Virus record (IMG/VR): IMGVR_UViG_2923339551_000001
From: a virus
Lineage: Duplodnaviria > Heunggongvirae > Uroviricota > Caudoviricetes
Length of the DNA stretch: 37,127 bases
Reading direction: 5' to 3' (one strand)
Under the pieces are notes generated by a model. The model ran no database searches, had not been told where the DNA came from, and was given only the letters and a program-made list of their open reading frames with translations. Position 1 is the stretch's first letter. Every line of letters begins with the position of its first letter. Positions 1,254 to 21,348 of the stretch are shown in pieces. Position numbers and translations under genes: made by a program.

Positions 1254-2147
1254 CTATTTCCAGTTACAAGCATCTTGAAGCGGTTTTAGTGCATTTGACA
1301 GGCCGCTTAAATTGAAAGTTGCACTTACAGGGCTTTCATTATAAGGGGTTATTTTTGTGTACATTTTATGTGAGTTGGCAAGTTTTCTTATGAAATCAAT
1401 ATCATTACCTTTATAAAAAACAGCCTTTGTATCTGTAGATATTAGCCAGTTTCTTTCAACTGCTTTCTGTTTATCAAGACGATACAGCATGCTGGTTTGT
1501 TCAAGGCCTAAATATACATCCCAACTAAGAAATACTTCGGTTTTCTTTTCTCGGCAAGCTATAAACAGAGTGGGAGTAACAGCTTCTCCAAATGGAGTTC
1601 TGATATAATCATCACTTTCTAACGATAAAATTATATTTTTCGAATCATCAATTGGCGATGTAGTAATGGACGTGTGCCATTTTCCTGCATCTGTGGCTTT
1701 CTCTAATTGTGATTCAGATTGAACAGCTTCATCCTGTGGGAATAGTTTATCGTAGCAGTTTAGTCTGGCTTCTTTATCATTTTCTGCTCGGCATTTAGAT
1801 ATTTCAGAAAGATTTGGTTGCTGAGCCTTTGTTGTTACTAGCTTTTCCGTTTTAGATTTTGAGTTTACAGATGGAGTAAATGTTGGAGAAAAAAAACGAT
1901 CATAACAAGATAAACGTTTGTCATCATCTTTCTCATCAGGGCATTGATCCCTGCTTTCAAATTTTTCAGCAACTTTCGTTCGAGTCGGTTGTATTGACTT
2001 ATCGTAACAAGAAAGTCTGTCTTTATTGTTTTCTATCGCTCGGCACTGGAGCACTGCATTGAAATTCTTATGTTCAGTTGCTGCATGAACAGGCAGTACA
2101 CTAATTGATATAAATAATGCACCTATAGAAAAAATCATATTTTTCAT
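1254..2147 (-). CDS. Hypothetical secreted protein with three Cys-containing repeats
   Basis: 297-aa ORF, AT-rich; N-terminal signal-peptide-like segment (MKNMIFSIGALFISISVLPVHA); three repeats of C-x8-9-RLxCYD(K/R)xF; family not recognised. Confidence 0.6.
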   Translation of the reverse strand: MKNMIFSIGALFISISVLPVHAATEHKNFNAVLQCRAIENNKDRLSCYDKSIQPTRTKVAEKFESRDQCPDEKDDDKRLSCYDRFFSPTFTPSVNSKSKTEKLVTTKAQQPNLSEISKCRAENDKEARLNCYDKLFPQDEAVQSESQLEKATDAGKWHTSITTSPIDDSKNIILSLESDDYIRTPFGEAVTPTLFIACREKKTEVFLSWDVYLGLEQTSMLYRLDKQKAVERNWLISTDTKAVFYKGNDIDFIRKLANSHKMYTKITPYNESPVSATFNLSGLSNALKPLQDACNWK

Positions 2148-2151
2148 TTTA

Positions 2152-2484
2152 TTATCCCTTTGGTTTAGTAAGAAATACTAAAATTCCGATAATGATATCG
2201 CCAATAACCCATAAGCCTCCAATGACAATTAAACCTAAGCCCGTACCAATAACTGCCCCAGCTTTTTCGGCATCGGATGTGGTATTGTTTATTATTTCAT
2301 CAGCGCCTCCTAGTCCAACTAAAAGTGTATAGATCATAAAAATATTAAAAAATATAAAAGTCCATTTAATGAGTTTTCCAAAAAATGAACGCTTAAGTTT
2401 TTTCAGTTGTTTACCACAAGCAGGGCAACATAATGCTGAATCGCTTACCTCTTTCTGGCATTCAGGACATTTGATTAATGTCAT
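2152..2484 (-). CDS. Hypothetical zinc-ribbon membrane protein
   Basis: 110-aa ORF; N-terminal CPEC-x10-CCPAC zinc-ribbon motif followed by two hydrophobic helices; 4 nt upstream of the secreted-protein gene, likely one operon. Confidence 0.6.
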   Translation of the reverse strand: MTLIKCPECQKEVSDSALCCPACGKQLKKLKRSFFGKLIKWTFIFFNIFMIYTLLVGLGGADEIINNTTSDAEKAGAVIGTGLGLIVIGGLWVIGDIIIGILVFLTKPKG

Positions 2485-2683
2485 GTAATCCGTCTCCTTT
2501 GGAACACTACAAGCTGAAATTTGTTACAAAACATTTTGATTTTATCAGATTTTTTGTTGTTGATAAGTGCCAATTGATTAACTGGTTTAGAGTGATACAT
2601 ATAGAAAGGTAGAGCAGTGTCAGTGTGTGATGAAATACCCACAGTTTCATGGGATTTTTGCATTTAGAGCTGTGAGATAGGGT

Positions 2684-2790
2684 AATGTAGTTCAGTTAAG
2701 GAATTGAGGTTCGATAGCTCGAACCTCGCGCAGAGGCAAGATGACTGAAAGCCTGATTCCTTAATGCACAAAAATGAGTCTCTATTCATA
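2684..2790. repeat. Left terminal inverted repeat of the cassette
   Basis: Reverse-complements to 4056-4166 at roughly 93-95% identity (hand alignment); contains nested internal palindromes ttaaggaat/attccttaa and gaggttcga-tagc-tcgaacctc. Confidence 0.6.
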
Positions 2791-2996
2791 GAAGTGTATT
2801 AACTAATCGACATCGCCTGTTGTGTGGATTGCCCCCATAAACACGGGCTTTCTGCTTGTTTAGTAGTCACAGTATGTCTAAGCTTTCTCGTTAGCTTCTT
2901 CTGAAATGACCTGCACTACAAGCCCGCGCTTCCCATACACCACATGCAGTGCAAACTGACGCATCGGTTTTTCAATCAGCTAACTAAAAGTTTGGC

Positions 2997-3830
2997 TCAC
3001 CAAACGATGCGCCCATCTGATGTATGTCCTTTGGCTTGTTTTACTATACTGAAATCTACTATTCCATATGGATAAATTTTATTTACTTTAAACACAAGAT
3101 TAGCAACTAAATGCATTCTCGATTTAACTGTTTCTGTGCGCAAAGCGATATTTGAGGCCCCTTTTATTTTAGCGCTAGGATAAATGAGACCATCAACATC
3201 AGGGTATTTATCAAGAAGAAGACGGCAAAAAATTCTTGAGTAAATATAATTTACCTCATGGGCATTGATACTATTAAGCAACTCAGCAGAAAGGGCATCC
3301 ATATACAAATATGATAGCAAAGCACGGATGTCGTCCTTACCAATTCTGCTAATGATGCCACGAATTTCATTAAACACTTCAATTGAAATTGTATTTACAC
3401 CGTGATACACATTAAAGACCTCACCGATAGCAAAACATCGCATTCCAGACTCTGAATTTTCCGGCATCTTAAAGTGAGCTATGTGAACATAATCCCCTTC
3501 TTTTGCATTAATTTCGGCTAAAGCTGTTCCGATACTATAAGCGCCATAGAAGATAGCTTGTCCATCATCATTCATTCGGCCTATTTTACATTTTTCTGGT
3601 GGAGGGGGATATATTTCACTGATGTTATTATATCCGCATTCATTTGGGCACTTTCGCGCTCTAAAAATTGGTCTGTCATAACCGAACTTGAAATTAACAC
3701 CGCCATATGATTGAAGATACCATCTAAGTAATCTCTCTACTTTCTCTGGCTTTATAGTAGTTAGTAATTCTTTACGAAACAGATCAAGACTATTTAACTC
3801 AATTACCTTTAGCTTATTATTCATGACCAT
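2997..3830 (-). CDS. RES-domain protein (putative NAD+-targeting toxin), no adjacent antitoxin gene
   Basis: 277-aa ORF, AT-rich; motifs FRAR, GRMNDDGQAIFYGAYSIGTALAEI and GLIYPSAKIKGASNIAL match the Arg/Glu/Ser signature regions of the RES family as I recall them; no Xre-like partner ORF in the cassette. Confidence 0.55.
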   Translation of the reverse strand: MVMNNKLKVIELNSLDLFRKELLTTIKPEKVERLLRWYLQSYGGVNFKFGYDRPIFRARKCPNECGYNNISEIYPPPPEKCKIGRMNDDGQAIFYGAYSIGTALAEINAKEGDYVHIAHFKMPENSESGMRCFAIGEVFNVYHGVNTISIEVFNEIRGIISRIGKDDIRALLSYLYMDALSAELLNSINAHEVNYIYSRIFCRLLLDKYPDVDGLIYPSAKIKGASNIALRTETVKSRMHLVANLVFKVNKIYPYGIVDFSIVKQAKGHTSDGRIVW

Positions 3831-4166: not shown

Positions 4167-4239
4167 GTGAGATAGGGTGCCTTATCGACCTTACCCTGGC
4201 AACCGATTGACGGGGGATTGCTCCCCCGTCGCGGTTTCC

Positions 4240-4380
4240 TTACTGCTTACACTGTAAGAACGCCGCAAACTCCGCTCCCCAGAAGCTCATCCGTATTTCG
4301 CACAGCGAACCGTGCAGCATCCAGATGATGAGGATTGCCGTCACGCAGAACGTGATGGCCGTAAGCGATTTTTGCGACAT
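4240..4380 (-). CDS. hok: Hok/Gef-family type I toxin (small membrane peptide)
   Basis: 46-aa ORF not in the track (under 60 aa); hand translation MSQKSLTAITFCVTAILIIWMLHGSLCEIRMSFWGAEFAAFLQCKQ; SLCEIR and E-x-AAF motifs and the TM segment fit Hok/Gef; AAGGAG Shine-Dalgarno 8 nt upstream. Confidence 0.6.
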   Translation of the reverse strand: MSQKSLTAITFCVTAILIIWMLHGSLCEIRMSFWGAEFAAFLQCKQ

Positions 4381-4570
4381 AGCGCTTGCTCCTTTTTCAG
4401 GGAGGCGCTAACCTATCACTTGCTAAGGTTAGACGGTTAGGGCCTCGGTTAAACAGAAATGTTTTCCGGGGCCTTTCCACATCTGGCCTTCGGGTATTCC
4501 CTCCGACCATCAGCCGAAAGGCACCCGCGCGTAATCTATCGCTTTTTTGTTACTCCGGCAATTCTGCCTG

Positions 4571-4831
4571 TTAATTCTGAGATAAAGGCAAACTCATCTG
4601 ATTGTTTCCCCTGTGTGAAGCTGGCAACTCATGCCACGGGATACCTTCTGAAGAGTGAACGCCGGGGGCGTGTTTCGATGTGAATTTATGGAAAGCTTCC
4701 AGTGTTGAGAAACTTATGCCGCATTCCAGGTTGTTACACTGGTAATATTTTTTCCGTACGGTGTTTGAATCATTTTCCGAACGACTGGTGCGGATACGGG
4801 CAGATGCGCCACAAAGCGGACAACGGAACAT
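4571..4831 (-). CDS. ogr: Ogr/Delta-family zinc-finger late transcription activator
   Basis: 86-aa ORF; CPLC-x19-CNNLEC zinc finger and N-terminal similarity to P2 Ogr; position next to D. Confidence 0.8.
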   Translation of the reverse strand: MFRCPLCGASARIRTSRSENDSNTVRKKYYQCNNLECGISFSTLEAFHKFTSKHAPGVHSSEGIPWHELPASHRGNNQMSLPLSQN

Positions 4832-4873
4832 AGCGACCTCCCTTAACGTGGTGCTGCTGCTATTCTAAGTTGC

Positions 4874-5983
4874 TCACTCTGTTTCTGCTATCCATTCCGG
4901 GATTTTTGCTTCAAGCTCAAGCTGCGTGGTAAAGCCACTGTTATCAATGGTGTGCTCGGCTTTCGCAATAATCCAGTCCTGATTATCAATCTCGCTTTTA
5001 AATCCTGTTACCGTGCCATGCATTTCGGGGTAGAGTTCTGCGCGTCCACGAGCCAGTGTGATGGAGAATGATGCGGCTCCGCGTTGTAGCTGCTGCCACT
5101 TTGCCGCCGCTGCGCGTCTTGCTGCCAGCTCGTTCTGATAAGTCTTGCGTAACACAAACACATTGCCATCCGCGCCTTCCATATAGTCACCTTCACGGCT
5201 GCTGCTTTTCTCCTTTTTGGGTTTTGGCGGTTTACGGCGTTTCACGCTGACTTTTTTCTTTTTCCCGTAATTAAGATCAAGCCAGTAGGCGCGTACCCCC
5301 GTATACGCCTCGCGGTCAGCAATACGGAATTGATGGCGATCGCCGCTGCTGCGTGTAATGGCGAACGAGGGCAACGGCTGGCCCTGTGCGTTCACGCCAC
5401 CACCTGGCATGATGAATAACAGATTACCGCTTTTTACCGTGGTGATTGCGCCCAGCATTTCCGCCATGCGCGTAAGGAAAGACATGTCGCTTTCTTCGGT
5501 CTGGTCGGCGTGGTCGATTTCGATATCCATCAGCATTTCGCTGATTTGCGGTTTCAGGCCGTACCGATGAGCGATGGCGGATACCACGCGCTCAACGGTC
5601 ACATCATGCCAGGATACTTCACGTTTAACGTTAAATTCATCCCGAAAATCTGCGCTTCTGGCTGAAACAGTCAGCCTGTCCGGCGGTCCTTCGTGAGCGA
5701 TTTCATCAACAATGTAAGTGCCTTTTTCTGTCAGCGGTTCTCCTTTCCAGCCAATGAGAACCGTCAGGCGCGCGCCCCGTGGCGGTAGCTGCAACTGACC
5801 ATCCGCATCATCCAGCGTGATGGTGAGCTGGTCCGCTTCAAATCCCCGGTTGTCGGTCAGTGACAGGTTCATCAGGCGCTCTGCCACGCCGGACAGCGTT
5901 TTACCCTCCGCGAAAATATCCAAATCCGGCATTTTCACGGGGTCTGTGCCCTGACTGAGCAATTGCATGGTGGTATCGGTCAT
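4874..5983 (-). CDS. D: Tail protein D (late control gene D family)
   Basis: Track ORF 4874-6115; I place the start at the internal ATG at 5983 (MTDTTMQLLSQG) because of a GGGAGGG Shine-Dalgarno 6 nt upstream; gpD-like sequence throughout. Confidence 0.8.
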   Translation of the reverse strand: MTDTTMQLLSQGTDPVKMPDLDIFAEGKTLSGVAERLMNLSLTDNRGFEADQLTITLDDADGQLQLPPRGARLTVLIGWKGEPLTEKGTYIVDEIAHEGPPDRLTVSARSADFRDEFNVKREVSWHDVTVERVVSAIAHRYGLKPQISEMLMDIEIDHADQTEESDMSFLTRMAEMLGAITTVKSGNLLFIMPGGGVNAQGQPLPSFAITRSSGDRHQFRIADREAYTGVRAYWLDLNYGKKKKVSVKRRKPPKPKKEKSSSREGDYMEGADGNVFVLRKTYQNELAARRAAAAKWQQLQRGAASFSITLARGRAELYPEMHGTVTGFKSEIDNQDWIIAKAEHTIDNSGFTTQLELEAKIPEWIAETE

Positions 5984-6140
5984 CTGTTCCCTCCCTGTGC
6001 GGCATGGTCGCATGTGCGTGCGGAAGGGGTTACTGCTTTTTGTTGTCGCCGAATCGGGAGAACGGCGCAGGGGTGAGATTACGCGCGTGGTGGGTGATGA
6101 TTGTTGCCGAATCATTTAACGGATACAAGGGGCTGAAGCT
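5984..6140. promoter_or_regulatory. Divergent intergenic region between D and FI (putative late promoters)
   Basis: 157 bp between divergent starts; contains direct repeats TTGT(C/T)GCCGAATC at about 6042 and 6098; no clean TGT-N12-ACA late-promoter motif identified by eye. Confidence 0.3.
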
Positions 6141-7325
6141 ATGAGTGAAACTCGTTTTCATGGTGCCCGTGTTACGGAAAATACCGACCTGGTAACAGCG
6201 ATTAACGATGTTGATTCCAGCGTTATCGGTATCGTGGCAACGGCGGATGATGCGGACGCGAAGCTGTTCCCGCTGAACAAGCCCACACTGCTGACCCGCG
6301 TCAATGACGTGCTGGGAAAATGCGGAACAACGGGGACGCTTTATCGTGCGCTTAAGGCCATCGCAGACCAGGTGAGCACAAAGGTGATCGTCGTTCGCGT
6401 GGCTGAACACAAAGAAGAAGACGGAAAGACGCAGGATCAACTGGTTATCGGTGGTTCTGAGGATGACGGCAGCTATACGGGGATGTATGCGCTGCTTGTT
6501 GCAGAGCAGGATGAAAGCATCGGATACCGTCCGCGTATTCTGGCCGCGCCGGAGCTGGACACGGAGGCGGTAACGAAATCCCTGTGCGTGATTGCAGGTA
6601 AACTGCGCGCGTTTGTGTATGCCTCATGTCACGGCTGTAACACGATGGCTGAGGCGATTACCTACCGCCAGAAATTCAACGAACGTGAGGTGATGCTCTT
6701 ATGGCCGGACTTCATCGCCTACAACCCGAAAAGTGGCAAAAACGAAACGTTCCCCGCGCCTGCCTATGCGTGCGGCCTTCGTGCGTACATTGACCATGAA
6801 CAGGGATGGCACAAATCACTGTCCAACGTTCCGGTTAAAAATGTGCTGGGGATGTCGAGGCATGTGTTCTGGTCGTTGCAGGCCGAAGACAGCGATGCCA
6901 ACAGCCTCAACAACAAAGAAATCACGACCATTATTCGTCGTAACGGGTTCCGCTTCTGGGGTAACCGCACACCGGAAACGAACGCCTACATCTTTGAGGT
7001 GTATACCCGAACCGCACAGGTGCTGGCTGATTCAATTGCGGAAGCGCAGTTTGAAACCATCGACAGTCCACTGACGCCTGCGAACGTGAAGGATGTTATC
7101 AGTGCCATCAGAGCAAAACTGGATTCGCTGGTTACTGCCGGGAAACTGATTGGCGCGGAGTGCTGGTATGACGTGGTGGATAACGGCACCACGGATTTAC
7201 GTCAGGGGCGTGTGCGTATTCGCTACAAATATACGCCCGTTCCCCCGCTGGAAGACATGGAGCTTTACCAGACGTTTACTGATGAATTCTTTGGTCCCGC
7301 ATTTGCGGTGCTGGGAGGTGCCTGA
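6141..7325 (+). CDS. FI: Tail sheath protein FI
   Basis: 394 aa; clear similarity to P2 gpFI (for example ADDADAKLFPLNKP...GTTGTLYRALKAI); ATG at 6141 verified. Confidence 0.9.
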   Translation: MSETRFHGARVTENTDLVTAINDVDSSVIGIVATADDADAKLFPLNKPTLLTRVNDVLGKCGTTGTLYRALKAIADQVSTKVIVVRVAEHKEEDGKTQDQLVIGGSEDDGSYTGMYALLVAEQDESIGYRPRILAAPELDTEAVTKSLCVIAGKLRAFVYASCHGCNTMAEAITYRQKFNEREVMLLWPDFIAYNPKSGKNETFPAPAYACGLRAYIDHEQGWHKSLSNVPVKNVLGMSRHVFWSLQAEDSDANSLNNKEITTIIRRNGFRFWGNRTPETNAYIFEVYTRTAQVLADSIAEAQFETIDSPLTPANVKDVISAIRAKLDSLVTAGKLIGAECWYDVVDNGTTDLRQGRVRIRYKYTPVPPLEDMELYQTFTDEFFGPAFAVLGGA

Positions 7326-7837
7326 TGGCTGTACCAAAACATCTTCGCTTTTTTACGTTGTTTGTGGATGGTGAAAACGAAGTGGGTAAAGTGACATCCG
7401 TCACGCCGCCCAAACTGACGCGCAAAACCGACAGTTATCGTGGTGGTGGCATGATGGGGGCGGTAAGTATTGATCTCGGTCTGGACGACTCTGCGCTTGA
7501 TGCGAGCTTTGTCATGGGTGGAGCTGTTCGTGCACTGTTTCTTAAGTATGGCGGCACGATTGACGGCACGCTGCTGCGTTTTGCGGGTGAATATTACACC
7601 GATGCAGAAAGCGATCTGTATGAAATCGAGATGCGCGGGCGTGTGACGGAAATTGATATGGGGGAGGCCAAACAGGGCGAAGCCACATCACACACATACG
7701 CTGTCAAAAACACCTACTACAAGCTGAGTGTTAACGATCGCCCGCTGTGGGAAATCGACCTGTTGAACCACATCTACCGGAAGGACGGCAAGGATATTGT
7801 GCCCGATCGCATCCGTTCCGCGCTTGGGCTTGGCTGA
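7325..7837 (+). CDS. FII: Tail tube protein FII
   Basis: 170 aa; similarity to P2 gpFII (KLTRK..YRGGGM.GA..IDLGLDD). Confidence 0.9.
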   Translation: MAVPKHLRFFTLFVDGENEVGKVTSVTPPKLTRKTDSYRGGGMMGAVSIDLGLDDSALDASFVMGGAVRALFLKYGGTIDGTLLRFAGEYYTDAESDLYEIEMRGRVTEIDMGEAKQGEATSHTYAVKNTYYKLSVNDRPLWEIDLLNHIYRKDGKDIVPDRIRSALGLG

Positions 7838-7891
7838 TAAGTAATATGCAGGCGACGCAGTGCGTCGCCTCTGACTGAAAGGAGTTTCCTG

Positions 7892-8257
7892 ATGAAAGAG
7901 ACGAAAAACATCGATACCGAAAACACGGTAGTTACTGACACTGTGAAAGAAACCAGTGAGCGTGGCGTAAAACTTACCCAACCCATTGAGCGAGGCGGCG
8001 AAAAAATCACGTATGTGGAGATCACCGGGGCTATTGAGCAGGCTGGATCTCTGCGAGATTTGTCGCTGTCTGATGTGCTGAATCTGAAAGCGGAATCCAT
8101 GTTTACGCTGCTGTCACGCGTGACATCACCGCGACTGGATGAAGTGACGATCAAAAAAATGGCATCCCGTGACTTTATTCAGTTATGTGTGGTTGCCGTA
8201 AATTTTTTGAGCGGTGCGGACTCTGGCGGGAAGAACGAACAGGCGACGGAAGCCTGA
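7892..8257 (+). CDS. E: Tail assembly chaperone E (zero-frame product)
   Basis: 121-aa ORF immediately upstream of the tape-measure gene; contains the TTTTTTG slippery site. Confidence 0.75.
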   Translation: MKETKNIDTENTVVTDTVKETSERGVKLTQPIERGGEKITYVEITGAIEQAGSLRDLSLSDVLNLKAESMFTLLSRVTSPRLDEVTIKKMASRDFIQLCVVAVNFLSGADSGGKNEQATEA

Positions 8258-8421
8258 TCACGGTTGTGTGCTTTGAGCACATAGAAGACTTTGTGGCGGA
8301 TATTGCCGCCATTTTTAACTGGTCGCCCGCCGAAATCTTCATGATGACGCCCGGCGAAGTGGTTAGCTGGCGTGAGCGGGCGGCACTTCGCAGCGGGAAT
8401 GCAGACAATGAAGACTCTTGA
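7892..8421 (+). CDS. E+E': Tail assembly chaperone E+E' (programmed -1 frameshift product)
   Basis: Slippery heptamer T_TTT_TTG at 8203-8209 in the E frame; the -1 frame continues as the track ORF 8185-8421; same arrangement as P2 E/E'. Confidence 0.65.
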
Positions 8422-11215
8422 TATCCGGGTCGCTTTCAGCGCCGTTGACAGGCTGACCCGACCTGCCGAAAACGCCCGCCGCCTGATGGGGCAGTTTGGT
8501 GACTCCATCCAGCGAACGCAGGGGGCGATCAAAAATCTCGAGCGTCAGGCGCGATCATTTGAGCGCGCCCGCGACGCTGTCAGTAAAGCGGATGCTGGCG
8601 TCGTGAAAGCACGACGCCAGCTTAACGCCCTTAATCAGTTACAACGCACGGGTACAGTGCTCAGCGAAAAACAACAAAAGCTGATGCAGCAGTTAAGCAC
8701 CCGGCTTGAACGCCTGAATGAATCGCGTACACGGGAAATTCAGAAAATGCGGGAGCTTGGCGGAGAGCTGAAACGCCACGGCATTTCCCTGACAGGCAGC
8801 GATAACACCATCCAGCAGGCCATCAGACGCACCGAACAGTACAACAACCAGCTTGAACGCGAACGGCAGGCGCTTGCGCGTGTAACGCGGGCGCGTGAGC
8901 GGTATTCGCGCGCGCAGGAAACCGCGGAAAAACTGAAAACAGGTGGTGCGCTGGCAATTGGTGCGGCAGCGGCTGGCGGCTATGCTGCCGGGCGTTTTTT
9001 GCAGCCTGCGATCGGGTTCGGGAAAGAGATGTCCCGCGTTCAGGCACTGACGCGAATCGACCAGAACAGCCCGCAGTTTAAGGCGCTGCGTGAGCAGGCG
9101 TTAAAACTTGGCTCTGAAACGCAGTTCACCGCAGGCGATGCCGCCAGTGGGCAGGCATTTCTTGCAATGGCTGGCTTCACACCGCAGGCCATTCAGGCTG
9201 CGCTTCCGGGCGTGCTGAGCATGGCAACGGCTGGCGGCATGGATCTCGGCGAGACGGCGGATATTGGCTCAAATATCCTGACGCAGTTCGGCCTTTCTGC
9301 TGACCAGATGGACCGGGTTGGCGACACGCTCACCGCAGCGTTTACCCGTACCAACACTGACCTTCGCGCACTGGGCGAAACCATGAAATATGCAGGTCCG
9401 GTGGCGGGTAAGCTGGGAATATCGCTGGAGCAGACCGCAGCGATGGCGGGCGTGCTGGCGAATATGGGTATCAGAGGGAGTGATGCCGGGACGGCAATGC
9501 GTGCCAGCCTGGCTCGTCTGGCATCACCGCCAAAGGCAGCAGCAGAGGCGCTGAAAGAGCTTGGTGTGGCAGTCTCTGACGCGAACGGCAAAATGCGCCC
9601 GATGGAGGATGTGCTGGCTGACCTTTATAAAGCCACCCGCAAATACGGGGAAGTTGACCGGGTATCGTTCTTTAAGGACATTGCCGGAGAAGAGGCTTTC
9701 ACATCGTTTATGGCGCTCGTTGATGCAGCGGGTGACGGTTCCTTACCCAAACTGAGAAAAGAACTTGAAGGCGCGCGCGGTGAGGCTGAACGCACAGCAA
9801 AGGTTATGGCCAACAACCTTGACGGCGATCTGAAATCACTCGGCAGTGCATGGGAAGGGTTGCGCATCCGCATTGCAGATCTGATTGACGGTCCGCTGCG
9901 TTCTGTCACGCAGTGGCTCACGCGGGTGGTATCAAGGGTGACGGCGCTGGCGCAGGCCCATCCGGTACTGACGCGCCAGCTACTGATAGCAGGCGGTGTG
10001 TTGCTGGCAATGACTGCAACGGTTGGCTCGTTGTCGCTGGCTATTGGTGTGCTTGCTGGCCCGCTGGCAAAACTGCGTCTTGGTTTTTCTCTCCTGACCG
10101 GATCAATGAATGCTGTCAGGGTCCTGCCAGCACTATGGGGAATGGTGACGGGTTCCGTTTCTTTGCTGGGAGGTGCTATCGGGGCGCTATTCAGTCCGGT
10201 TGGTCTTATCGTGGCTGCGCTTGCCGGAGCTGCCGTTCTTATCTCGAAATACTGGGATCCCATCAGGGCATTTTTTGCCGGGGTGTTCAGCGGGATTATG
10301 GAAAGGCTGATCCCGTTGCGCGAAACCTTTGAACAGTTTGGTCCTGTTTTTGACGCAATCGGAAGCGGGATCAGCCAGGTGTTTAACTGGTTTAAATCGC
10401 TGCTGTCACCGATGGAGTCCAGCAAGGAAACGCTGGATAAATGTACCAGTGCTGGCGAGATATTCGGTAACGTTCTTGGTGGCGCGTTACAGCTTGTTCT
10501 GACGCCTGCAAAAATGTTGCTGGATACGCTGGCGTGGATACTTGAAAAACTCGGTGTTCTTCCGGATGAAGCGGAAAGGGCGAGAAAGAAAATCGAAGAC
10601 GCACAGCGTGCGGCCATTCTTCAGGACAAGGTTGCCTTGCTTCAGGGGGACCTGGCGAAAATCAATCCGCCGAAGCCTGTGGAAAATGGCAATGGCACCG
10701 GAGGTGATAAACCCAAAGACAATAAACCGCTCACAGACAGCAATACCGGGACGCTACGCAGACTCAGCAAAATTGCTGATAACACAGGTAAGCTGGTTGA
10801 TGAGACGAAAAAACGCATTGGCCCCGGCGATATTGTCTTTAAGAACCTGCCCCGCGCACTTGTTGTTCGTGGGGAGTGGCAGGAGCGGAAGATTGCGCAG
10901 GTCAGTAAGCCTGCCACCGCAATTAATATCACACCCGTGGTTCCGGCTCCGCTGCCTCCGGCGCTGGTCCCTGTTGTTGCGGCCAGCTCCCGCCCGGTGG
11001 CGGAGGCCATACGATCGCCAGTGGCATCAGTTCCTGCAACTTCCCGTAACCGGGAACCTGTTGCCTCCGGATTTGGTGGTGAAATTCATGTTCATCTGCA
11101 TAACGTTGTGACGCAGAATCCCCGCGAACTGGCGAAACTGGTCGGTGAAATGGTCAGGGCAGAAATGGAACGGCGCGCCCGTGCCGGGCGTGGCAGTTTT
11201 TACGATAAAGATTGA
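8372..11215 (+). CDS. T: Tail tape measure protein T
   Basis: 947-aa ORF (GTG at 8372; in-frame ATGs at 8399 and 8408 are alternative starts); coiled-coil N-terminus, Gly/Ala-rich hydrophobic middle; position between E' and U. Confidence 0.85.
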   Translation: MSGRHFAAGMQTMKTLDIRVAFSAVDRLTRPAENARRLMGQFGDSIQRTQGAIKNLERQARSFERARDAVSKADAGVVKARRQLNALNQLQRTGTVLSEKQQKLMQQLSTRLERLNESRTREIQKMRELGGELKRHGISLTGSDNTIQQAIRRTEQYNNQLERERQALARVTRARERYSRAQETAEKLKTGGALAIGAAAAGGYAAGRFLQPAIGFGKEMSRVQALTRIDQNSPQFKALREQALKLGSETQFTAGDAASGQAFLAMAGFTPQAIQAALPGVLSMATAGGMDLGETADIGSNILTQFGLSADQMDRVGDTLTAAFTRTNTDLRALGETMKYAGPVAGKLGISLEQTAAMAGVLANMGIRGSDAGTAMRASLARLASPPKAAAEALKELGVAVSDANGKMRPMEDVLADLYKATRKYGEVDRVSFFKDIAGEEAFTSFMALVDAAGDGSLPKLRKELEGARGEAERTAKVMANNLDGDLKSLGSAWEGLRIRIADLIDGPLRSVTQWLTRVVSRVTALAQAHPVLTRQLLIAGGVLLAMTATVGSLSLAIGVLAGPLAKLRLGFSLLTGSMNAVRVLPALWGMVTGSVSLLGGAIGALFSPVGLIVAALAGAAVLISKYWDPIRAFFAGVFSGIMERLIPLRETFEQFGPVFDAIGSGISQVFNWFKSLLSPMESSKETLDKCTSAGEIFGNVLGGALQLVLTPAKMLLDTLAWILEKLGVLPDEAERARKKIEDAQRAAILQDKVALLQGDLAKINPPKPVENGNGTGGDKPKDNKPLTDSNTGTLRRLSKIADNTGKLVDETKKRIGPGDIVFKNLPRALVVRGEWQERKIAQVSKPATAINITPVVPAPLPPALVPVVAASSRPVAEAIRSPVASVPATSRNREPVASGFGGEIHVHLHNVVTQNPRELAKLVGEMVRAEMERRARAGRGSFYDKD

Positions 11216-11221
11216 GGAGTC

Positions 11222-11716
11222 ATGGTCATGATGATGATCTACGGCATGTTTGTTTTTGAGTTGCGCACATTGCCGCATCAGCAGTTACAGCAAAACAAAA
11301 GCTGGCGGCATGTGAAGAATGAACGCGTTAACCGCTCAGCAAGCTGGCAGTATATCGGTGCAGGTGATGATCGCATCGTGCTTTCTGGCGTGCTTTATCC
11401 TGAAATTACAGGTGGCGAAGTGTCGCTTTCGTTGCTGACCACGCAGGCATATACAGGACGCCCCTGGCCTCTGATTGATGGTGTCGGGCAGATTTACGGC
11501 ATGTATGTACTGACTGAAACGAATACGACCCGCTCCGAGTTTGATCGCTACGGTAAGGCGAAAAAGATAGAGTTTTCACTGACTCTTGAACGCTGTGATG
11601 AGGATTTGCGGGAGCGCCTGCAATCCTCATCGTTCAGCGATATGCTGTCCGGCTTCAAAGATAAGGTGACAGCATCCATTAACAACGCAGCCAGTTCAGT
11701 TAAAGGGCTGTTCTGA
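11222..11716 (+). CDS. U: Tail protein U
   Basis: 164 aa; similarity to P2 gpU (GMFVF...LPHQ...AGVLYPE.TGG). Confidence 0.85.
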   Translation: MVMMMIYGMFVFELRTLPHQQLQQNKSWRHVKNERVNRSASWQYIGAGDDRIVLSGVLYPEITGGEVSLSLLTTQAYTGRPWPLIDGVGQIYGMYVLTETNTTRSEFDRYGKAKKIEFSLTLERCDEDLRERLQSSSFSDMLSGFKDKVTASINNAASSVKGLF

Positions 11717-11886
11717 TTTAATGCTGGCCACTCATACCCTCATACCTGGTAATAAGTGGCCTGTCTTAACACTCACCATTTGATTGCACCCGTGTTGACG
11801 ATTTGTTACTGGATATCAGACACGCTGGATAGCCAGTAGAAACATACCATTAAAATTATTACAATAATTGGTCACATGATTATCTT

Positions 11887-12450
11887 ATGCTGAATAATAG
11901 AGATATGAATATTAATGAACTTAAAGACTGTATTCACTATGAAGTAATCGGTAGCGAGCGTCCTTTCTCCTGGCGAAAGGCAATTGTTCGCGCAATAAAA
12001 CATAGAAGAGTTCGTTATTTATTTTGGTGGCGCATAGCCAAATACCTTTTTGATAAAGGCGGATACTGTCGGAAGATTGCGGGGAAAATAGAACGTTTCA
12101 TTCTTGATAAATATAATGTAACAGTCCCTTTAACTGTAAATATAGGGAAAGGCTTTGATATTTCTTATCTCAACAGTGTTGTTATCGGTCACAAAGTAAC
12201 CATCGGTGAAAATTGTTCAATAAAACCAGGGGTAACTATTGGGCTACGTGGTGATTTTAATGATATGGATATTGTTATAGGACATAATGTGACCATTGGT
12301 TGTAATGCCACCATTCTTGGTGGCAAAGTGCGTATAGGAAACAATGTCACAATAGGTGCTCATGCATTGGTATTGCATGATATTCCTGATGATTCAACAT
12401 TCATCACTAAATTTCAGTCTGAAGTTATCTGCTCGTCCTCCCGCACATAA
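11887..12450 (+). CDS. Hexapeptide-repeat (left-handed beta-helix) acetyltransferase, WcaB/CysE-like; cargo gene at the G/FI (Z/fun) hotspot
   Basis: 187 aa, AT-rich; repeated [LIV]GxxxxIG hexapeptide motifs ([55 protein letters not shown]); 3' end overlaps the 3' end of G by about 37 nt. Confidence 0.7.
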
Positions 12451-13031
12451 CCCTGATTCATCAGCTCTGGCCATACGATATCCGGAGCTGTACTGGTGTC
12501 AATTCGACTCACTAATACTCTGTATTTTCTCCAGGAATCCAGTTGTGAAGTTTCCTCGTTTGTTGCTATTTCAAGATTAACTGCATCCTGCAGAATTGCG
12601 ATGTTATCTGTTGCCTCCTGGATCAACCTTGCCTTTTTCTCTTCCGCTTCCCGTATACGAAACAGTTTTTCTGCCTCCTCATCCTTCACCCAGGATACGC
12701 CGTCCCACTTCTGATACTCCCCTGCTGGCGACAACCAGGTGACATTCCCGGGTAGCGGGCCGGGTTCAGAAATGAACAACGCGTCCCCCGATGCCACGTC
12801 ATAGACCGTTTTACCACGATGGTCTTCAACAATATTCCACGACTCATTTTCACTGTTAAAAACTGCCACAAAGCCAGCCGGAATATCCGGTGGGGCGATA
12901 TCTGTAGAATTAGCTGGCAGCCCTGTATGAGCTGGAATATATGCGTCACCTTCACCAATAAACTCATTAGTTCCGGCCAGCAGGTTATAAATTTTTACAG
13001 TACGTGATTGTTCACTCATTCTGAATGCCAT
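12414..13031 (-). CDS. G: Tail fiber assembly protein G
   Basis: 205 aa directly downstream of the tail fiber gene; Tfa-like sequence. Confidence 0.8.
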
Positions 13032-15031
13032 TATGCAAGCCTCACAATATAATTAAATGCGATGTTTTTAACGGTGTTTTCCGTGTTACCAGTAGCGTTA
13101 ACAGTGATGGTGTGTCCATGTGAACCAATCGCAACGGAGTGTGTATGAGCGCCAATACCAACTGTATGTGCATGCGCCCCTGCACTTGCAGCAGTGCCTG
13201 ATACTGAGTGGGTGTGTGCACCAGAAGAAGGCACTGTTCCATTCCCCACGACCGTGCCACTTGATGCACCATCAAGCCAGTCGAAATTCATACCTCCACT
13301 GTTTGGTCTCCTTAATGGAACGGTATGAGTATGTGCGCCAGCACTATTTGCAGTACCAGATACATTATGGGTATGTGCACCTGTGTTATTCGTTGATTTA
13401 GTACCGTAATCAAACGACGATGTGGTTTTCGTACCCAAATCCGTACTGGATGCGCTGGCACTGTGGGTGTGCGATTTAATGCCATCCTGTTCCTGAGACA
13501 ATACGGCTCGACCACTTGCGGGTTTGCCCTTGATTGTCCAGCCACGCATATCGGGGAGTACACCAGAGGGATAAGCTGCTGCAAGCAGGGGATAGGTTGT
13601 TTTATCAAAAGTCTGCCCCTGCATAACGGCATAACCTGTAGGCACTGAATCAGATGGCCACGGAATCGCCGCACCTACAGGAAATGAATCCTGCGGCGTC
13701 CATGGTGTCCAGCCCCCCGTTGAGGGCTGGCTGCGGGTATAGCTTCTGGATGTGTTATACACATAGTAAATCTGTGTTATCCCGGCATTTTTAAGCACAA
13801 CCAGTGTACCCGCAAAATTCTCTGGGTATTTCAGCGCTGCACTTGTATTGGCATTCAGGGGCTGATGGTACAGCCCCGGCGTTTTGTAATTATCCAGATT
13901 CTGGTTTGCACCAATCTCAATACTCTGACCGTTAAAAATATCCTGTGATGTAACATTGACATCATTGGTCAGTGGTTTGCCATTAACCTTACGTCCAGAG
14001 GGCACACGCCCGTTTGCATTGTCATTAGCAGCTTTAACCGCTTTCGGGGTCGCGGCAAGCGTTTCAGACGTGCTGTTGGTTGCACTAGTAAGCTGGACTA
14101 TCCCTTTTTGTGCTGTTGTTGCATCCTGTGCGGTGTATTTGCCATTAGCAAGGTCATATGCTGCCTTTACCGCCTTTGGCGTTGCCGCCAGCGTTTCAGA
14201 ATCGCTGTTGGTGGCACTACTGAGCTGGACAAGACCTTTTCGCGCTGTGGTAGCGTCCTGTGCGGTATATTTCCCGTTAGCAAGGTCATTTACTGCCTTT
14301 ACTGCTTTTGGCGTTGCAGCCTGTGTTTCAGACACGCTGTTAGTGGCGCTACTGAGCTGAACAAGGCCTTTTCGCGTCGTGCTGGCATCCTGCGCAGTAT
14401 ATTTCCCGTTAGCAAGGTCATACGCGGCCTTTACTGCTTTCGGCGTTGCAGCCTGTGTTTCAGACACGCTGTTAGTGGCGCTGCTAAGTTGAACAAAGCC
14501 TTTTGCGGTCAGCGAGGCGTCCGGGTGACGTCGTGACTGTTCATGCTCTTTCAGTTTGTCATCCACGTAATCCACTGTGGCCATCACCATGGTGTTATCC
14601 ACGGTAAGCGCCACAGTGGCAGTGCTGGATACGGTCAGAATGGTGCGAAATGTTTGTGCACGCCCAGACCCTTCGGCAACGGTTGGCTTGTAACTTTCGG
14701 CAGTATTGCCCACCGCGATTAAATCGCCGTGCTCATCAAACACACCAATTTCCCGGATCCAGAATCCGCCCGTTTCAGGAGGAATAACCAGCTCTGCAAT
14801 AATGCGGTTCTGATGTGTTGCGTCCAGGATGATGCGATTAACAGTGTGTCGCCACACCTCATGAACCAGACGGGTCTGCTTACTGTCTGGTGTGGGCAAC
14901 GCGCCGCCACCGTCGCCCACGGCCATATGAGTCAGGCGGACAGGCTTACCATCTGGCGCGGCTGCCTGAGCTAATTTTTTTGCACCCGTATCGGTGATAA
15001 CGGTTTTAAATTTTCGTGTTGTGGTACTCAT
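13031..15031 (-). CDS. H: Tail fiber protein H
   Basis: 666 aa (P2 gpH is about 669); conserved N-terminus, four tandem ~41-aa repeats in the shaft, His-rich HxH-containing C-terminal tip. Confidence 0.85.
14000..14510. repeat. About four tandem ~120-bp coding repeats within tail fiber gene H
   Basis: DNA repeats visible by eye, encoding repeated KG(L/F)[39 protein letters not shown] units. Confidence 0.6.
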
Positions 15032-15033
15032 GC

Positions 15034-15564
15034 TTAATCGCCTGGATAAATGGTAATAACTTCACCGTCATAAGTTGCCGCCGCTGCGAAAATATCCCCC
15101 GGAATTTCCTGAATGATATTCAGCCCTGTCATGTGGCGGCTGACCGGGCGGGCATCAGCAATCAACCGCTCCATTTCCAGATACATTTCCTCCGTCACGC
15201 CACTGTCCAGCGTGCCGACTTCAACGGTAAATGTTCCCGGTTCTCCGCCGAACTCCCACCACTCAGACACGCGAATGAGGTATCCCAGCGGCTCAATGGC
15301 CCGGCGTAGTGCGCTGATGGTCCCTTTGTGTCGGTGTATCAGCCATGCATCACGAATAACCTGTCGCTTTGTCTCTTCCGGCCAGTTGCGATCCCAGCGG
15401 TCAACGGAAAACGCCCAGGCGAGATAAGGCAGCAGATGCACCGGGCAGGTGTCCGGCGACCACAGCGTGTTGAGGTCTACCGGAATGTCTGTAATGCGCG
15501 CTCCGACAGCTTCGGCGCAACGCATGAAACTGCTGGCTGATGGCGGTAACAGTGAATTACTCAT
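15034..15564 (-). CDS. I: Baseplate/tail protein I
   Basis: Track ORF 15034-15597; start placed at the ATG at 15564 (MSNSLLPP...), giving 176 aa as in P2 gpI and an 8-nt overlap with J. Confidence 0.8.
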
Positions 15565-16453
15565 TACGCCCACCTTCGCTGATGGTGAATGACTCACAGC
15601 GCGCCGCCTGTATGTCGCTGATGGCCATATTCTGTGTGGGTTCGATTATCTCCACGCGTTGCACACCGTGCACATGCAGTGCGGCAGCAATGGCGGACAA
15701 CGCCACGTCCTGACCGATAAGCCCCTGCTCAGCCAGCCACTTCCTGAACGACGATTCAGCCGCAGCCAGAATAGGTTCGGATTCCGGGCCGGGATAAAAG
15801 TACAGTTTTGCATTCAGCCGCCATGTCACGATTCTGGCACTCTGTACGGTCAGGCGGTCGGCCACCGGGCGGGTATCCTCTGCATTCAGAACGGCGCGAA
15901 CGGTATTAAGCAACGCCTCCGTTGCTGTGCCGTCGCCCTCAGTGGACAGGATGGAAACCGTCACATTTGCCGGAGACGGGCTGATGGCCCGCGCATCACG
16001 CACCAGACCGCTGGCGCTGCGGGCAAAATACTCGTATGCACCTGACGGGCCAGCAACACTCAGGCCGTCGTACGCCCGCTGCGCCCGCAGTCTCAGTGAG
16101 GTGTCGCTCTCCATCACCGCGTCGGTGGTATCCGTTGCCGGAGTGATAACCAGGCGCTTTGTGTTCATATTGCCCGCGAGGTTGTCCAGGTTTGTCCCTG
16201 AACCGTGGCTTAACATGCAGGCGCGTGCGCCCTCGTTAACCCGCTGGCGTAACAGCATTTCACGAAAAGACATGGTTTGAGCGATAACGTTCAGGGGTTC
16301 CGATTCCAGCTCCAGCGCGGCGGAGACGGCTTCACGCTGTTCGGCAGGATAGGACGCAATCATCATGGCCTTTGTGTCAGCCAGAATTGCTTCAAAATCA
16401 GGCTCCGCGATGATGGCGGGTTCCGGTAACTGTGAAAGGTCAACGGCGGGCAT
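15557..16453 (-). CDS. J: Baseplate assembly protein J
   Basis: 298 aa; gpJ-like; position between W and I. Confidence 0.85.
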   Translation of the reverse strand: MPAVDLSQLPEPAIIAEPDFEAILADTKAMMIASYPAEQREAVSAALELESEPLNVIAQTMSFREMLLRQRVNEGARACMLSHGSGTNLDNLAGNMNTKRLVITPATDTTDAVMESDTSLRLRAQRAYDGLSVAGPSGAYEYFARSASGLVRDARAISPSPANVTVSILSTEGDGTATEALLNTVRAVLNAEDTRPVADRLTVQSARIVTWRLNAKLYFYPGPESEPILAAAESSFRKWLAEQGLIGQDVALSAIAAALHVHGVQRVEIIEPTQNMAISDIQAARCESFTISEGGRNE

Positions 16454-16456
16454 GAT

Positions 16457-16807
16457 TTACTCCCTCAGCGTGATGGTTAATTCAACATTCTGCATGGTCT
16501 GCATGACAGTGCCCGACAGCGTCACCCCGGCGCGGCCTCCCGCTTTCCAGACAACGTCGATGGCATCCAGGGCAATGCGGGGTTCCCATCGTGTCAGCGC
16601 AATCACGGCAGCACTCATGCATTGCAGACGCGTGGTGTTATTCATGGGTTCGTCAATCAAATCAGGCACAAGGCTGCCATATTCCCGTCGCATAACCCGG
16701 CTTGCCAGCGGGGTGGTCAGGATGTCCCTGACTGACTGTTTCAGGTGCTCCATATCGTTCAGGTTTCCCGTTCCGTCCGGGTTCATTCCTGTGTAGCGGG
16801 TTGTCAC
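16457..16807 (-). CDS. W: Baseplate protein W (gp25/GPW family)
   Basis: 116 aa; size and position as P2 gpW. Confidence 0.85.
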   Translation of the reverse strand: MTTRYTGMNPDGTGNLNDMEHLKQSVRDILTTPLASRVMRREYGSLVPDLIDEPMNNTTRLQCMSAAVIALTRWEPRIALDAIDVVWKAGGRAGVTLSGTVMQTMQNVELTITLRE

Positions 16808-17385
16808 TGCGGGCCTCCTGTCGAATCGCTGCCACCTTTAACGCCACCGTGCTTATGCGTATGCACTGTGATGCCGTTTGAGGTGAAATCGCCGCCGCTG
16901 TGCGTGATATTGCCGCTCATCTTTCCCCCTTTTGTGACGTCAATCTCGGCTGTTTTCAGAAGGTTTGTGCATTCCACGACGGGCGTATCCAGTGTCACGC
17001 TGACGGATGCCTGCAGGGTGGCCGTTTTCATGCCGCTGGCGCTCAGTGCGCCTGCGTCCGCGTCGTAGCGGAACACCGCGCCATCCGGCGCGCTGACCAC
17101 GATTTCTTTCAGGCTTTTGCCGGGGGCCGGACTGGCATCACTCCACAGGCTGCCAATTATCATGGCGGTTTCCGGGTTGCCGCCAATGCAGGCAATTACC
17201 ACCTGTTCGCCGGGTGATGGCGGCAGCCACACATTGAAGGCTCCCGCGCGCGTGGTGTTCCAGCGTAACCAGCCTGTTTCCAGTTCGCCGCTGCGAACGC
17301 GCACGCACCAGGACTTCTCATCAACTTCAGAGATGATCCCGGTGCGGATGACATTGCTCAGCAGTCGCATGAGTTCTGCGCTCAC
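16804..17385 (-). CDS. V: Baseplate spike/assembly protein V
   Basis: 193 aa; gpV-like; overlaps W by 4 nt. Confidence 0.8.
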   Translation of the reverse strand: MSAELMRLLSNVIRTGIISEVDEKSWCVRVRSGELETGWLRWNTTRAGAFNVWLPPSPGEQVVIACIGGNPETAMIIGSLWSDASPAPGKSLKEIVVSAPDGAVFRYDADAGALSASGMKTATLQASVSVTLDTPVVECTNLLKTAEIDVTKGGKMSGNITHSGGDFTSNGITVHTHKHGGVKGGSDSTGGPQ

Positions 17386-18026
17386 CGTACAGCCTCCGCA
17401 ATCCGGCCCAGCACCGTGTTATAAATCAGGCGCTCATCTGCCTGGCTGATACCCAGCAGCTCACGTACCGGGTAATCGGTGAAAATGCCCGGCGCAACCT
17501 GATCGCGCTCACCGAACTGATGAACGCGTGCAATACGTGCGGCCACGCCGCTGTAACCCACCGTCACACCGGATGCATCTGCACGGGCTTTCAGGTAGCG
17601 GGCGGTGCGCAGTTTTACGAACATGGGGACGTGCCTGGTGCTGTCCTGGTCGATGCGCCGGGTGCGTATTTCCAGAAAACGGTCGATGTCATCCCGGTAA
17701 AACGTGCGGATGCTGTTTTTATCCTCATCCCACCCGGTGATGGTTCGCCCGTATTTCCCCGTGTCGTGATGCCAGTTTTTCAGCGTGCGTGCTTCGTTAT
17801 TCCAGATAAAACGAATGCGCTCCTGTATCCGGGTTACGCGGCGTCTGCGTGGTGTCCACGCGGTCCCGTCCGGCGCTTTCTGTGACCGGATACGCGCCTG
17901 CTGGGCGCGACGTAAATCCTGTGCCAGCTTTCTGGCGATGTTATTGATGGCCTGCTGATTCAGGCTGTCGCGGATGGCCTCAAAGGTTTCATCCACGCGG
18001 ATGAATGCCTTATCCATCGCTTTCAC
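17382..18026 (-). CDS. S: Tail completion / virion morphogenesis protein S
   Basis: 214-aa ORF at the gpS position between R and V; exact start uncertain. Confidence 0.65.
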   Translation of the reverse strand: MKAMDKAFIRVDETFEAIRDSLNQQAINNIARKLAQDLRRAQQARIRSQKAPDGTAWTPRRRRVTRIQERIRFIWNNEARTLKNWHHDTGKYGRTITGWDEDKNSIRTFYRDDIDRFLEIRTRRIDQDSTRHVPMFVKLRTARYLKARADASGVTVGYSGVAARIARVHQFGERDQVAPGIFTDYPVRELLGISQADERLIYNTVLGRIAEAVR

Positions 18027-19731: not shown

Positions 19732-19733
19732 TG

Positions 19734-21331: not shown

Positions 21332-21348
21332 TTTTTCTCTCCGTTACA

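Follow-up and report, generated by a model that had tools for sequence, protein, structure and literature searches.

Gene order and strands around the FI-U block

The window, by which we mean the whole 37,127-nucleotide stretch of viral DNA that was analysed, carries the P2-type gene set Q, P, O, N, M, L, R, S, V, W, J, I, H, G, FI, FII, E, T, U, D and ogr (tblastn, 25-73% identity; Pfam), together with an A-type replication protein and int, C and cox (tblastn against P2; Pfam). FI, FII, E/E', T and U span 6141-11716 on the plus strand, and the genes on either side, D/ogr (4571-5983) and H/G (12414-15031), are both on the minus strand. These gene identities and strands, as given by the first-pass annotation, were confirmed with Pfam and PHROGs, and the distance of 157 bp that it placed between the divergent starts of FI and D is exact (5984-6140). 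The genes and the right-hand junction are as follows.

4571-4831, minus strand: ogr, Ogr/Delta zinc-finger late activator (Pfam PF04606 Ogr_Delta, E = 1e-15; 39% identity to P2 Ogr)
4874-5983, minus strand: D, tail/baseplate hub protein gpD, 369 aa, opening the predicted D-ogr unit (Pfam Phage_GPD; PHROG 52; 48% identity to P2 D)
6141-7325, plus strand: FI, tail sheath (Pfam sheath domains; 45% identity to P2 FI)
7325-7837, plus strand: FII, tail tube (Pfam Phage_tube, E = 2e-45)
7892-8257, plus strand: E, tail assembly chaperone (PHROG 103 tail protein; 32% identity to P2 E)
8203-8421, plus strand: E' extension in the -1 frame, open to 8421, with slippery heptamer T TTT TTG at 8203-8209 (sequence; PHROG 1756)
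8408-11215, plus strand: T, tape measure protein, 935 aa from the ATG at 8408 (Pfam PhageMin_Tail; start as in the P88 and PhiR44_2 annotations)
11222-11716, plus strand: U, last gene of the inverted F operon (Pfam Phage_P2_GpU, E = 5.5e-39)
11717-11886, no strand: right breakpoint region and cargo insertion hotspot, with homology to most relatives ending at 11721
11887-12450, plus strand: cargo, hexapeptide-repeat O-acetyltransferase of low GC content (Pfam Hexapep; PHROG 2154)
12414-13031, minus strand: G, tail fibre assembly protein, ending the long O to G late operon (Pfam Caudo_TAP)
13031-15031, minus strand: H, tail fibre (Pfam tail-fibre domains; N-terminus 73% identical to P2 H)

The start of D was placed at the ATG at 5983, which is preceded by the Shine-Dalgarno sequence GGGAGGGA and gives a protein of 369 aa as in the PhiR44_2 GpD annotation; the start at 6115 of the longer open reading frame was rejected. 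The ogr gene follows downstream of D after a gap of 42 nt. The heptamer at 8203-8209 lies in the E frame upstream of T, where it is predicted to direct a -1 frameshift yielding E and E+E'. The block genes are intact and full length, all being equal in length to their P88 and PhiR44_2 counterparts.

On the right, the cargo acetyltransferase overlaps the 3' end of G by 37 nt. Its NCBIfam matches are EpsC/CysE/WcaB-like and all fall under the cut-off, and PADLOC returned no defence-system matches for the cargo genes. A terminator scan gave nothing convincing at either breakpoint; no clear intrinsic terminator was found after U, where the hairpin is no better than shuffled sequence (z = -0.85).

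When searched by tblastn, all of the late genes of the window matched the plus strand of P2, while in the window FI to U are on the plus strand and D, ogr and the genes from G and H to O on the minus strand. The segment inverted relative to P2 corresponds to P2 17652-22791, which is exactly FI to U, bearing out the earlier suggestion of a genuine rearrangement relative to that phage. The P2 annotation gives the collinear order G, fun(Z), FI, FII, E, T, U, D, ogr. The window resembles the P2 F operon (FI-FII-E-E'-T-U-D with promoter pF, then ogr) in its genes, in the E/E' frameshift heptamer and in the distance from the pF box to FI. The canonical pattern with FI-FII-E-T-U-D on one strand is absent, however: FI-U is inverted, and D lies outside the F operon on the opposite strand, forming with ogr a predicted unit of its own that diverges from FI. 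In P2, U overlaps the start of D, a coupling that D of the window lacks. Identity to P2 is 45% for FI, 43% for FII and 46% for U inside the block, and 48% for D, 44% for P, 47% for Q and 42% for N outside it.

Relatives and distribution of the inverted order

By blastn, the window matched phage P88 (NC_026014) at 96.4% identity over 4169-11721, 97.1% over 14163-26691, 96.0% over 27785-32989 and 92.3% over 32990-34818, amounting to 92-97% across about 27 kb of the window. In megablast, 4402-11721 aligned as one collinear piece at 94-96.5% identity to P88, PhiR44_2, P884B11, Citrobacter ΦSM and others. These four phages share with the window 94-97% nucleotide identity, the order and orientation of ogr-D-FI-FII-E-E'-T-U and the D/FI spacer. 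They differ from it in the distal tail fibre and in what lies between U and G, where P88 has a DNA invertase and an alternative fibre cassette and PhiR44_2 has no cargo, in contrast to the acetyltransferase of the window. The right junction with identical cargo was found in 135 genomes. P88 forms plaques, with a burst size of about 65 and contractile tails visible by EM (PMC5285337), and ΦSM is plaque-forming and lysogenises K-12 (PMC6456863).

The strand pattern of the window is repeated in the annotations of P88 and PhiR44_2 as well as in those of SEN4 (Salmonella, Senquatrovirus) and 3LV2017 (Klebsiella, Reginaelenavirus). The latter two phages have the inverted FI-U block, with D and FI reading away from each other across a spacer of about 136-171 bp, and in each the D/FI box matches the phage's own O/P box. 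They differ from the window in that D is only 62-70% identical, the box is a full TGT-N12-ACA, and the cargo and replication modules are other ones. A literature search retrieved the phage papers, and those searched neither describe the inversion nor mention gene order.

Of 5426 complete E. coli genomes, 1354 contain the D/FI junction (5500-6700) as a single uninterrupted match of 95-99% identity, and it is also present in at least eight independently sequenced phage genomes. Among 80 D-anchored loci from GTDB species genomes, the inverted order was seen in 48, with D at 61-98% identity, and the loci whose D was at most 55% identical were collinear. Tree-based scoring of 85 loci, comprising these 80 and five reference phage loci, placed 49 in the inverted and 34 in the collinear class and left 2 unclassified. 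Of these two, L030 was inverted by separate locus scoring, bringing the inverted loci to 50, and L066, with J immediately upstream of D, seems to be a remnant. More than 20 Enterobacterales genera are represented among the 50 prophage loci with the inverted order, which SEN4 and 3LV2017 have too and which is conserved down to about 60% protein identity.

The order is inverted in all three of the genera Xuanwuvirus, Senquatrovirus and Reginaelenavirus and has stayed collinear in P2, phiCTX and PHL101, so that the first-pass statement of collinearity in P2 and its known relatives holds for the latter three phages and fails for the former three genera. Simple distance trees by neighbour joining (NJ), built for D, FI and U with phiCTX as the root and carrying no support values, group the inverted loci in an exclusive clade; a J tree was left out because the phiCTX locus has no J and could not provide a root. 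Since P2, phiCTX and PHL101 are collinear and the inverted loci form one exclusive clade, the sequence comparisons point to a single old inversion followed by vertical inheritance.

The D/FI spacer and its predicted divergent promoters

Since the F operon of the window cannot end with D, this gene needs a promoter of its own, as the first-pass annotation had anticipated, and it appears, from the conserved geometry of the D/FI spacer, to have one there (pD). The features of this spacer and of the O/P spacer used for comparison are as follows.

5984-6140, no strand: divergent D/FI spacer, 157 bp, predicted bidirectional late promoter region with pD leftward and pF rightward (sequence; clade-wide alignment; geometry tests)
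6004-6009, minus strand: predicted pD -10 hexamer GACCAT, with a predicted TSS at about 5997 (from nAnnnT conservation)
6015-6023, no strand: GC-rich element TGCGTGCGG between the dyad and the pD -10, at least 80% conserved in the spacer alignment
6044-6061, no strand: predicted P2-type activator (Ogr) box TGT-N12-AGA, centre 6052.5 (sequence pattern and conservation)
6096-6101, plus strand: predicted pF -10 hexamer GATGAT, with a predicted TSS at about 6108 (nAnnnT conservation; geometry as in P2 pF)
23362-23379, no strand: comparison activator box TGT-N12-AGA in the divergent O/P spacer, centre 23370.5 (pattern search)
23414-23419 and 23326-23321: -10s of the O/P spacer, TAATCT on the P side and CATCAT on the O side, respectively (sequence comparison)

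A strict search of the window for TGT-N12-ACA gave only chance-level matches, none of them in late spacers, and a sigma-70 promoter scan gave nothing convincing at either breakpoint. The AGA-type box was found by comparing the two divergent spacers, D/FI and O/P. The extended match TGTTGT-N12-AGAAC occupies 6041-6063, and this 23-nt pattern occurs only twice in the window, once in each of these spacers. The right half-site is AGA in the window versus ACA in most relatives, and within each phage the D/FI and O/P boxes vary together in sequence. The dyad, as TGT-N12-A(C/G)A, is kept in 35 of 38 clade spacers, and the distance from the box centre to the FI ATG has a clade median of 82.5, the same value as for P2 pF. 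The position of TGCGTGCGG reads CGCGCG in most relatives, and the O/P spacers of the window, P88, SEN4 and 3LV2017 have a similar CGCGCG separating the dyad from the P-side -10.

An nAnnnT hexamer lies 43.5 nt from the dyad centre in 95% of 37 unique clade spacers on the FI side and in 89% on the D side, compared to at most 19% at all other offsets, these spacers being related, so that each does not count as a separate event. In 16 collinear relatives, the hexamer is present on the FI side in 15 and at the mirror position in one. The conserved -10 spacing would put starts about 55 nt from the dyad centre on each side, which is a prediction only; the annotated pP and pO TSSs of P2 are 55.5 nt either side of their shared box. 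The window pD -10 is weak, and the predicted D leader is short, at about 14 nt. An ogr homologue is encoded in the window, and its product is predicted to activate the spacer; we infer that Ogr would bind at 6044-6061 and that transcription would start near 5997 on the minus strand and 6108 on the plus strand.

The predicted arrangement resembles P2 pP/pO in having one TGT-N12-NNA dyad midway between divergent late genes, in the predicted placing of the -10s and TSSs at about 55 nt to either side of the dyad centre, and in GC-rich DNA between box and -10. It differs in its location between D and FI as the product of an inversion, in the AGA half-site of the P88 group, and in being a prediction from sequence.

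Origin of the inverted order and alternative explanations

The first-pass annotation had raised the possibilities of an assembly artefact and of a disabled prophage. That FI-U was mis-oriented during assembly would account for the difference from P2 and for nothing more; as the junction is collinear and unbroken in 1354 complete E. coli genomes and recurs in at least eight phages sequenced independently and in 50 loci from other genera, and the right junction with the exact cargo is found in 135 genomes, we give this explanation practically no credence. A recent, disabling rearrangement that split D from the F operon and its promoter could be argued from the loss of translational and transcriptional coupling to U, whose P2 counterpart overlaps the D start. 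It is very improbable all the same, given that functional P2-like relatives, the plaque-forming phages P88 and ΦSM, have the same order (PMC5285337, PMC6456863), that the block genes are all full length, that the arrangement is kept to about 60% protein identity and that promoter-like architecture is conserved upstream of D. The DNA invertase gene directly downstream of U in P88 might suggest a programmed segment flipped by a site-specific, for example Gin/Cin-type, enzyme. That invertase lies beside an alternative tail-fibre cassette, however, which is what it would usually act on, and the window has the acetyltransferase and no invertase at this position. An inverted-repeat search found only short, chance-like pairs, none pairing 5984-6140 with 11717-11886, and a single orientation was seen across the 1354 E. 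coli genomes and 50 loci, making an invertible segment extremely improbable.

Acquisition of FI-U from another phage and its insertion in the opposite orientation would be in keeping with the mosaicism of P2-like phages, whose adjoining tail-fibre/cargo region is clearly exchanged among phages. Such a replacement is quite unlikely because divergence from P2 is similar within and outside the block, D groups the inverted loci in one exclusive clade just as FI and U do, and the pF box-to-FI geometry is the same as in P2. As for the promoter of D, it could be an ordinary constitutive or otherwise regulated one, independent of the shared Ogr box; the weak D-side -10 is in favour of this, as is the motif CGCGCGTAATCT (minus strand, 6087-6076), a possible leftward promoter of the P88 subgroup. 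This motif is limited to few lineages, however, while the mirror-position -10 occurs in 89% of the spacers and is missing in collinear relatives (all but one), at a spacing equal to that of P2 pP/pO, and we regard a box-independent promoter as unlikely. As a general mark of D promoters, CGCGCGTAATCT (three copies) was rejected, its orientation relative to the box differing between the two spacers and its occurrence being confined to those few lineages.

The window is thus very probably an intact P88-like prophage (Peduoviridae, genus Xuanwuvirus) in which the inverted block is the normal functional order, reached through an ancestral inversion, with one Ogr box most likely serving divergent pF and pD. 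This inversion turned round a stretch with one end a little upstream of the pF activator box and the other at the U/D boundary, and the resulting order, H-G | U-T-E'/E-FII-FI | D-ogr, has since been passed on vertically. It severed D from the F operon and left its start about 70 bp from the pF activator box, so that a single box most likely serves two divergent late promoters, like the shared pP/pO box of P2. Predicted pF would drive FI-FII-E/E'-T-U rightward, and a new pD would drive D leftward, and ogr too by read-through. On balance it seems probable that one ancient inversion made pF a second bidirectional Ogr-dependent promoter (pD/pF), creating a new D-ogr late unit with direct positive feedback of Ogr on its own gene and defining a clade of at least three ICTV genera found in about one quarter of E. 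coli genomes.

For this common and functional prophage lineage the inverted block is standard, being neither damage nor misassembly, and the use of P2 as the sole reference would mislead on it. The comparative data also lead to a testable prediction, that an essential gene, once an inversion had separated it from its operon, came to share the activator site of its neighbour and was thereby rescued, and the predicted D/FI design would repeat the pP/pO design used elsewhere in the same genome.

Gene order, identity and cargo of the prophage

Gene identities and strands were assigned with Pfam, PHROGs, and NCBIfam and matched those of the first-pass annotation, which had been made from the sequence without database searches. 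The late genes around the block FI-FII-E/E′-T-U are as follows.

4571-4831, minus: ogr
4874-5983, minus: D
6141-7325, plus: FI
7325-7837, plus: FII
7892-8257, plus: E
to 8421, plus: E′ extension
8408-11215, plus: T
11222-11716, plus: U
11887-12450, plus: hexapeptide acetyltransferase
12414-13031, minus: G
13031-15031, minus: H

The longest D open-reading frame extends to 6115; the true start is the ATG at 5983, preceded by GGGAGGGA, with a product of 369 aa as in the PhiR44_2 annotation, and the divergent D/FI spacer is therefore 5984-6140, exactly the 157 bp originally reported. Positions 8203-8209 of the E frame are a P2-type slippery heptamer, T TTT TTG, and the −1 frame stays open as far as 8421. 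In tblastn of the window proteins against P2, all late genes matched the P2 plus strand, and the P2 annotation runs G, fun(Z), FI, FII, E, T, U, D, ogr in one orientation throughout. The segment flipped relative to P2 is precisely FI to U, which bears out the inversion first proposed, and the window, as expected, does not have the collinear F operon of P2.

Megablast against phage genomes gave a single unbroken alignment over 4402-11721, at 94-96.5% identity, to Escherichia phage P88, PhiR44_2, Xuanwuvirus P884B11, Citrobacter phage ΦSM, Chuche, 520873, 500465-2, and 503458, and ~27 kb of the window aligned to the entire P88 genome by blastn at 92-97% identity. P88 and PhiR44_2 have the strand pattern of the window, with D and ogr opposite to FI-U and with H and G oriented like D. 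Given these P88-group alignments and the common strand pattern, the window is an ordinary member of Xuanwuvirus (Peduoviridae), and the element tested positive both as a P2-like phage and as a Xuanwuvirus. Inside this integrating prophage lie genes for an actin-like segregation protein, ParM (28152-29111, minus), and an StbB-like plasmid-stability protein (27836-28282, minus; region 27836-29111), both likewise found in P88. The 940-aa GPA-family replication protein (29188-32010, minus) is homologous to P2 A over residues 77-744 at 31% identity, so both of its termini reach beyond the similarity.

U ends at 11716, and the 3′ ends of U and G converge across a variable cargo site, as the first-pass annotation had described; this site is the counterpart of fun(Z) in P2. 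It is occupied in the window by a gene for a low-GC hexapeptide O-acetyltransferase and in P88 by a DNA invertase gene next to an inverted pair of alternative tail-fibre and assembly genes, together a host-range shufflon (8251-10399 of L001, the P88 locus); PhiR44_2 and SEN4 have no cargo. No convincing intrinsic terminator was found after U. The acetyltransferase gene shares 37 nt with the 3′ end of G and occupies this site in only 135 of ~1370 E. coli genomes with this prophage type; together with a tail-fibre-assembly module it is also present in phage vB_EcoM-613R2 and E. coli plasmid NZ_CP021729. The gene may serve lysogenic conversion by modifying surface polysaccharide; its NCBIfam matches all fall below cut-off. 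Cargo at the prophage end (1254-3830, minus) is also low in GC (36-38%) and gave no match in PADLOC.

1254-2147, minus: VasI-domain protein, also in PhiR44_2 as a hypothetical protein
2152-2484, minus: zinc-ribbon protein, also in PhiR44_2 as a hypothetical protein
2997-3830, minus: RES-domain protein

Origin and spread of the inverted order

An assembly artefact or a rearrangement disabling the prophage had been suspected. Of 5426 complete E. coli genomes, 1354 have a single collinear piece spanning the D/FI junction (window 5500-6700) with 95-99% identity, and the order is no assembly artefact. The right junction with the window's own cargo was found in 135 genomes; elsewhere, homology ends at the U stop codon because the cargo differs. 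A disabling event is contradicted by working P2-like relatives with the same order, the very finding that the first-pass annotation had named as refuting its reading: P88 is inducible and plaque-forming, with a burst size of ~65 and a contractile tail by EM (PMC5285337), and ΦSM, which is released spontaneously, also makes plaques and lysogenizes K-12 strains (PMC6456863). The block genes of the window are all equal in length to those of P88 and PhiR44_2.

One genome per GTDB species was scanned with an alignment of D, and the 80 loci returned were sorted by tblastn; the sorting was then repeated on 85 loci, these 80 plus five from reference phages, and gave 49 inverted, 34 collinear, and 2 unclassified. 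One of the latter, L030, was inverted in the first-round tblastn, bringing the inverted loci to 50, while in the other, L066, J lies immediately upstream of D and the locus resembles a remnant. The inverted order is J-I-H-G (plus), U-T-FII-FI (minus), D-ogr (plus), and its hosts span more than 20 genera of Enterobacterales, among them Salmonella, Serratia, Erwinia, Pantoea, Klebsiella, Enterobacter, Citrobacter, Edwardsiella, Pectobacterium, Xenorhabdus, Photorhabdus, Providencia, Morganella, Hafnia, and Yersinia. D of the inverted loci is 61-98% identical to that of the window, and all loci at or below 55% D identity are collinear as in P2. Salmonella phage SEN4 (Senquatrovirus) and Klebsiella phage 3LV2017 (Reginaelenavirus) are inverted like the window, whereas Pseudomonas phiCTX and Mannheimia PHL101 are collinear. 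One prophage region, L006 (NZ_JBQPOM010000071.1), lies on a contig of a Gram-positive assembly, 'Vagococcus sp. WN89Y'; its D is 97% identical to the enterobacterial D of the window, and the contig is probably contamination of that assembly.

The inverted loci form a single exclusive clade in neighbour-joining trees of D, FI, and U rooted on phiCTX, and genes inside and outside the block show similar divergence from P2. The simplest reading is a single in-situ inversion in an ancestor of this enterobacterial sublineage, then fixed and inherited. A switch or a recurrent event was rejected in favour of this single inherited inversion; no inverted repeats pairing the left and right breakpoints were found, and the element does not behave as a site-specific invertible segment in tests for one. 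The arrangement is that of the published, annotated, and classified phages P88, SEN4, and 3LV2017, and no remark on the inversion was found in the searchable papers, which do describe these phages. The inverted block is real but ordinary.

The D/FI spacer and a predicted promoter for D

Alignment of the D/FI spacers of 37 loci and the window showed flanks diverged beyond recognition around a conserved core, the P2-type activator (Ogr) dyad TGT-N12-A(C/G)A, perfect in 35 of 38 spacers. Two Providencia loci, L034 and L043, carry the symmetric variant TCT-N12-AGA in place of TGT-N12-ACA, a matched change of both half-sites that suggests their co-evolution with that lineage's Ogr protein. The dyad centre lies 78.5-88.5 nt from the FI start codon, with a median of 82.5, the corresponding distance at P2 pF, and 66.5-80.5 nt (median 71) from the D start codon, with L047 (55.5) as the sole exception. 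With up to one mismatch, the 37-kb window has just two copies of TGTTGT-N12-AGAAC, one in the D/FI spacer and one at 23359-23381, within the divergent O/P spacer homologous to the P2 pP/pO region. The two boxes of one phage are alike in lineage-specific detail, being TTGTTGT...AGAAC in the window and P88, GTTGTGGCA...TCACAAC in 3LV2017, and TGT...ACA in SEN4.

6044-6061: activator dyad, centre 6052.5
6096-6101, plus: FI-side hexamer GATGAT, predicted start ~6108
6009-6004, minus: D-side hexamer GACCAT, predicted start ~5997

In a positional scan of 37 unique D/FI spacers at offsets 25 to 59, an nAnnnT hexamer began 43.5 nt from the dyad centre on the FI side in 95% and on the D side in 89%, compared to at most 19% at the remaining offsets. 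The controls were 16 collinear relatives whose pF box could be recognised; the hexamer was present on the FI side in 15 of them and at the mirror position in 1. A GC-rich element (mostly CGCGCG) is conserved between the box and the D-side −10, and a similar one lies between the box and the P-side −10 of the O/P spacer. Three copies of the motif AGATTAC(C)CGCGCG, as such or as its complement, lie in the window, just downstream of ogr (4526-4537, minus), in the D/FI spacer (6076-6087, plus), and in the O/P spacer (23404-23419, plus); the first is upstream of a hok/gef-like gene annotated in P88 (~4248-4388), and the two spacer copies are not oriented alike with respect to the activator box.

The first-pass annotation held that D would need its own promoter, and the conserved box and mirror −10 supply a candidate, a leftward pD opposite the rightward pF of FI. 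At P2 pP/pO, one annotated activator site serves both promoters, with mapped starts 55.5 nt either side of its centre; the predicted pD/pF would work in the same way, its membership of that class being by sequence geometry only. Since ogr begins 42 nt after D, it is probably co-transcribed late from the predicted pD, as from pF in P2. We infer the whole pD/pF arrangement from comparison among these loci. The inversion would have moved the pF box to within ~70 bp of D, a leftward −10 would then have evolved at the mirror position of the box, and the outcome would be a bidirectional late promoter of the pP/pO type for D and FI. The one mildly new element is the prediction, a well-supported one, that a bidirectional promoter with a shared box rescued D after the inversion.
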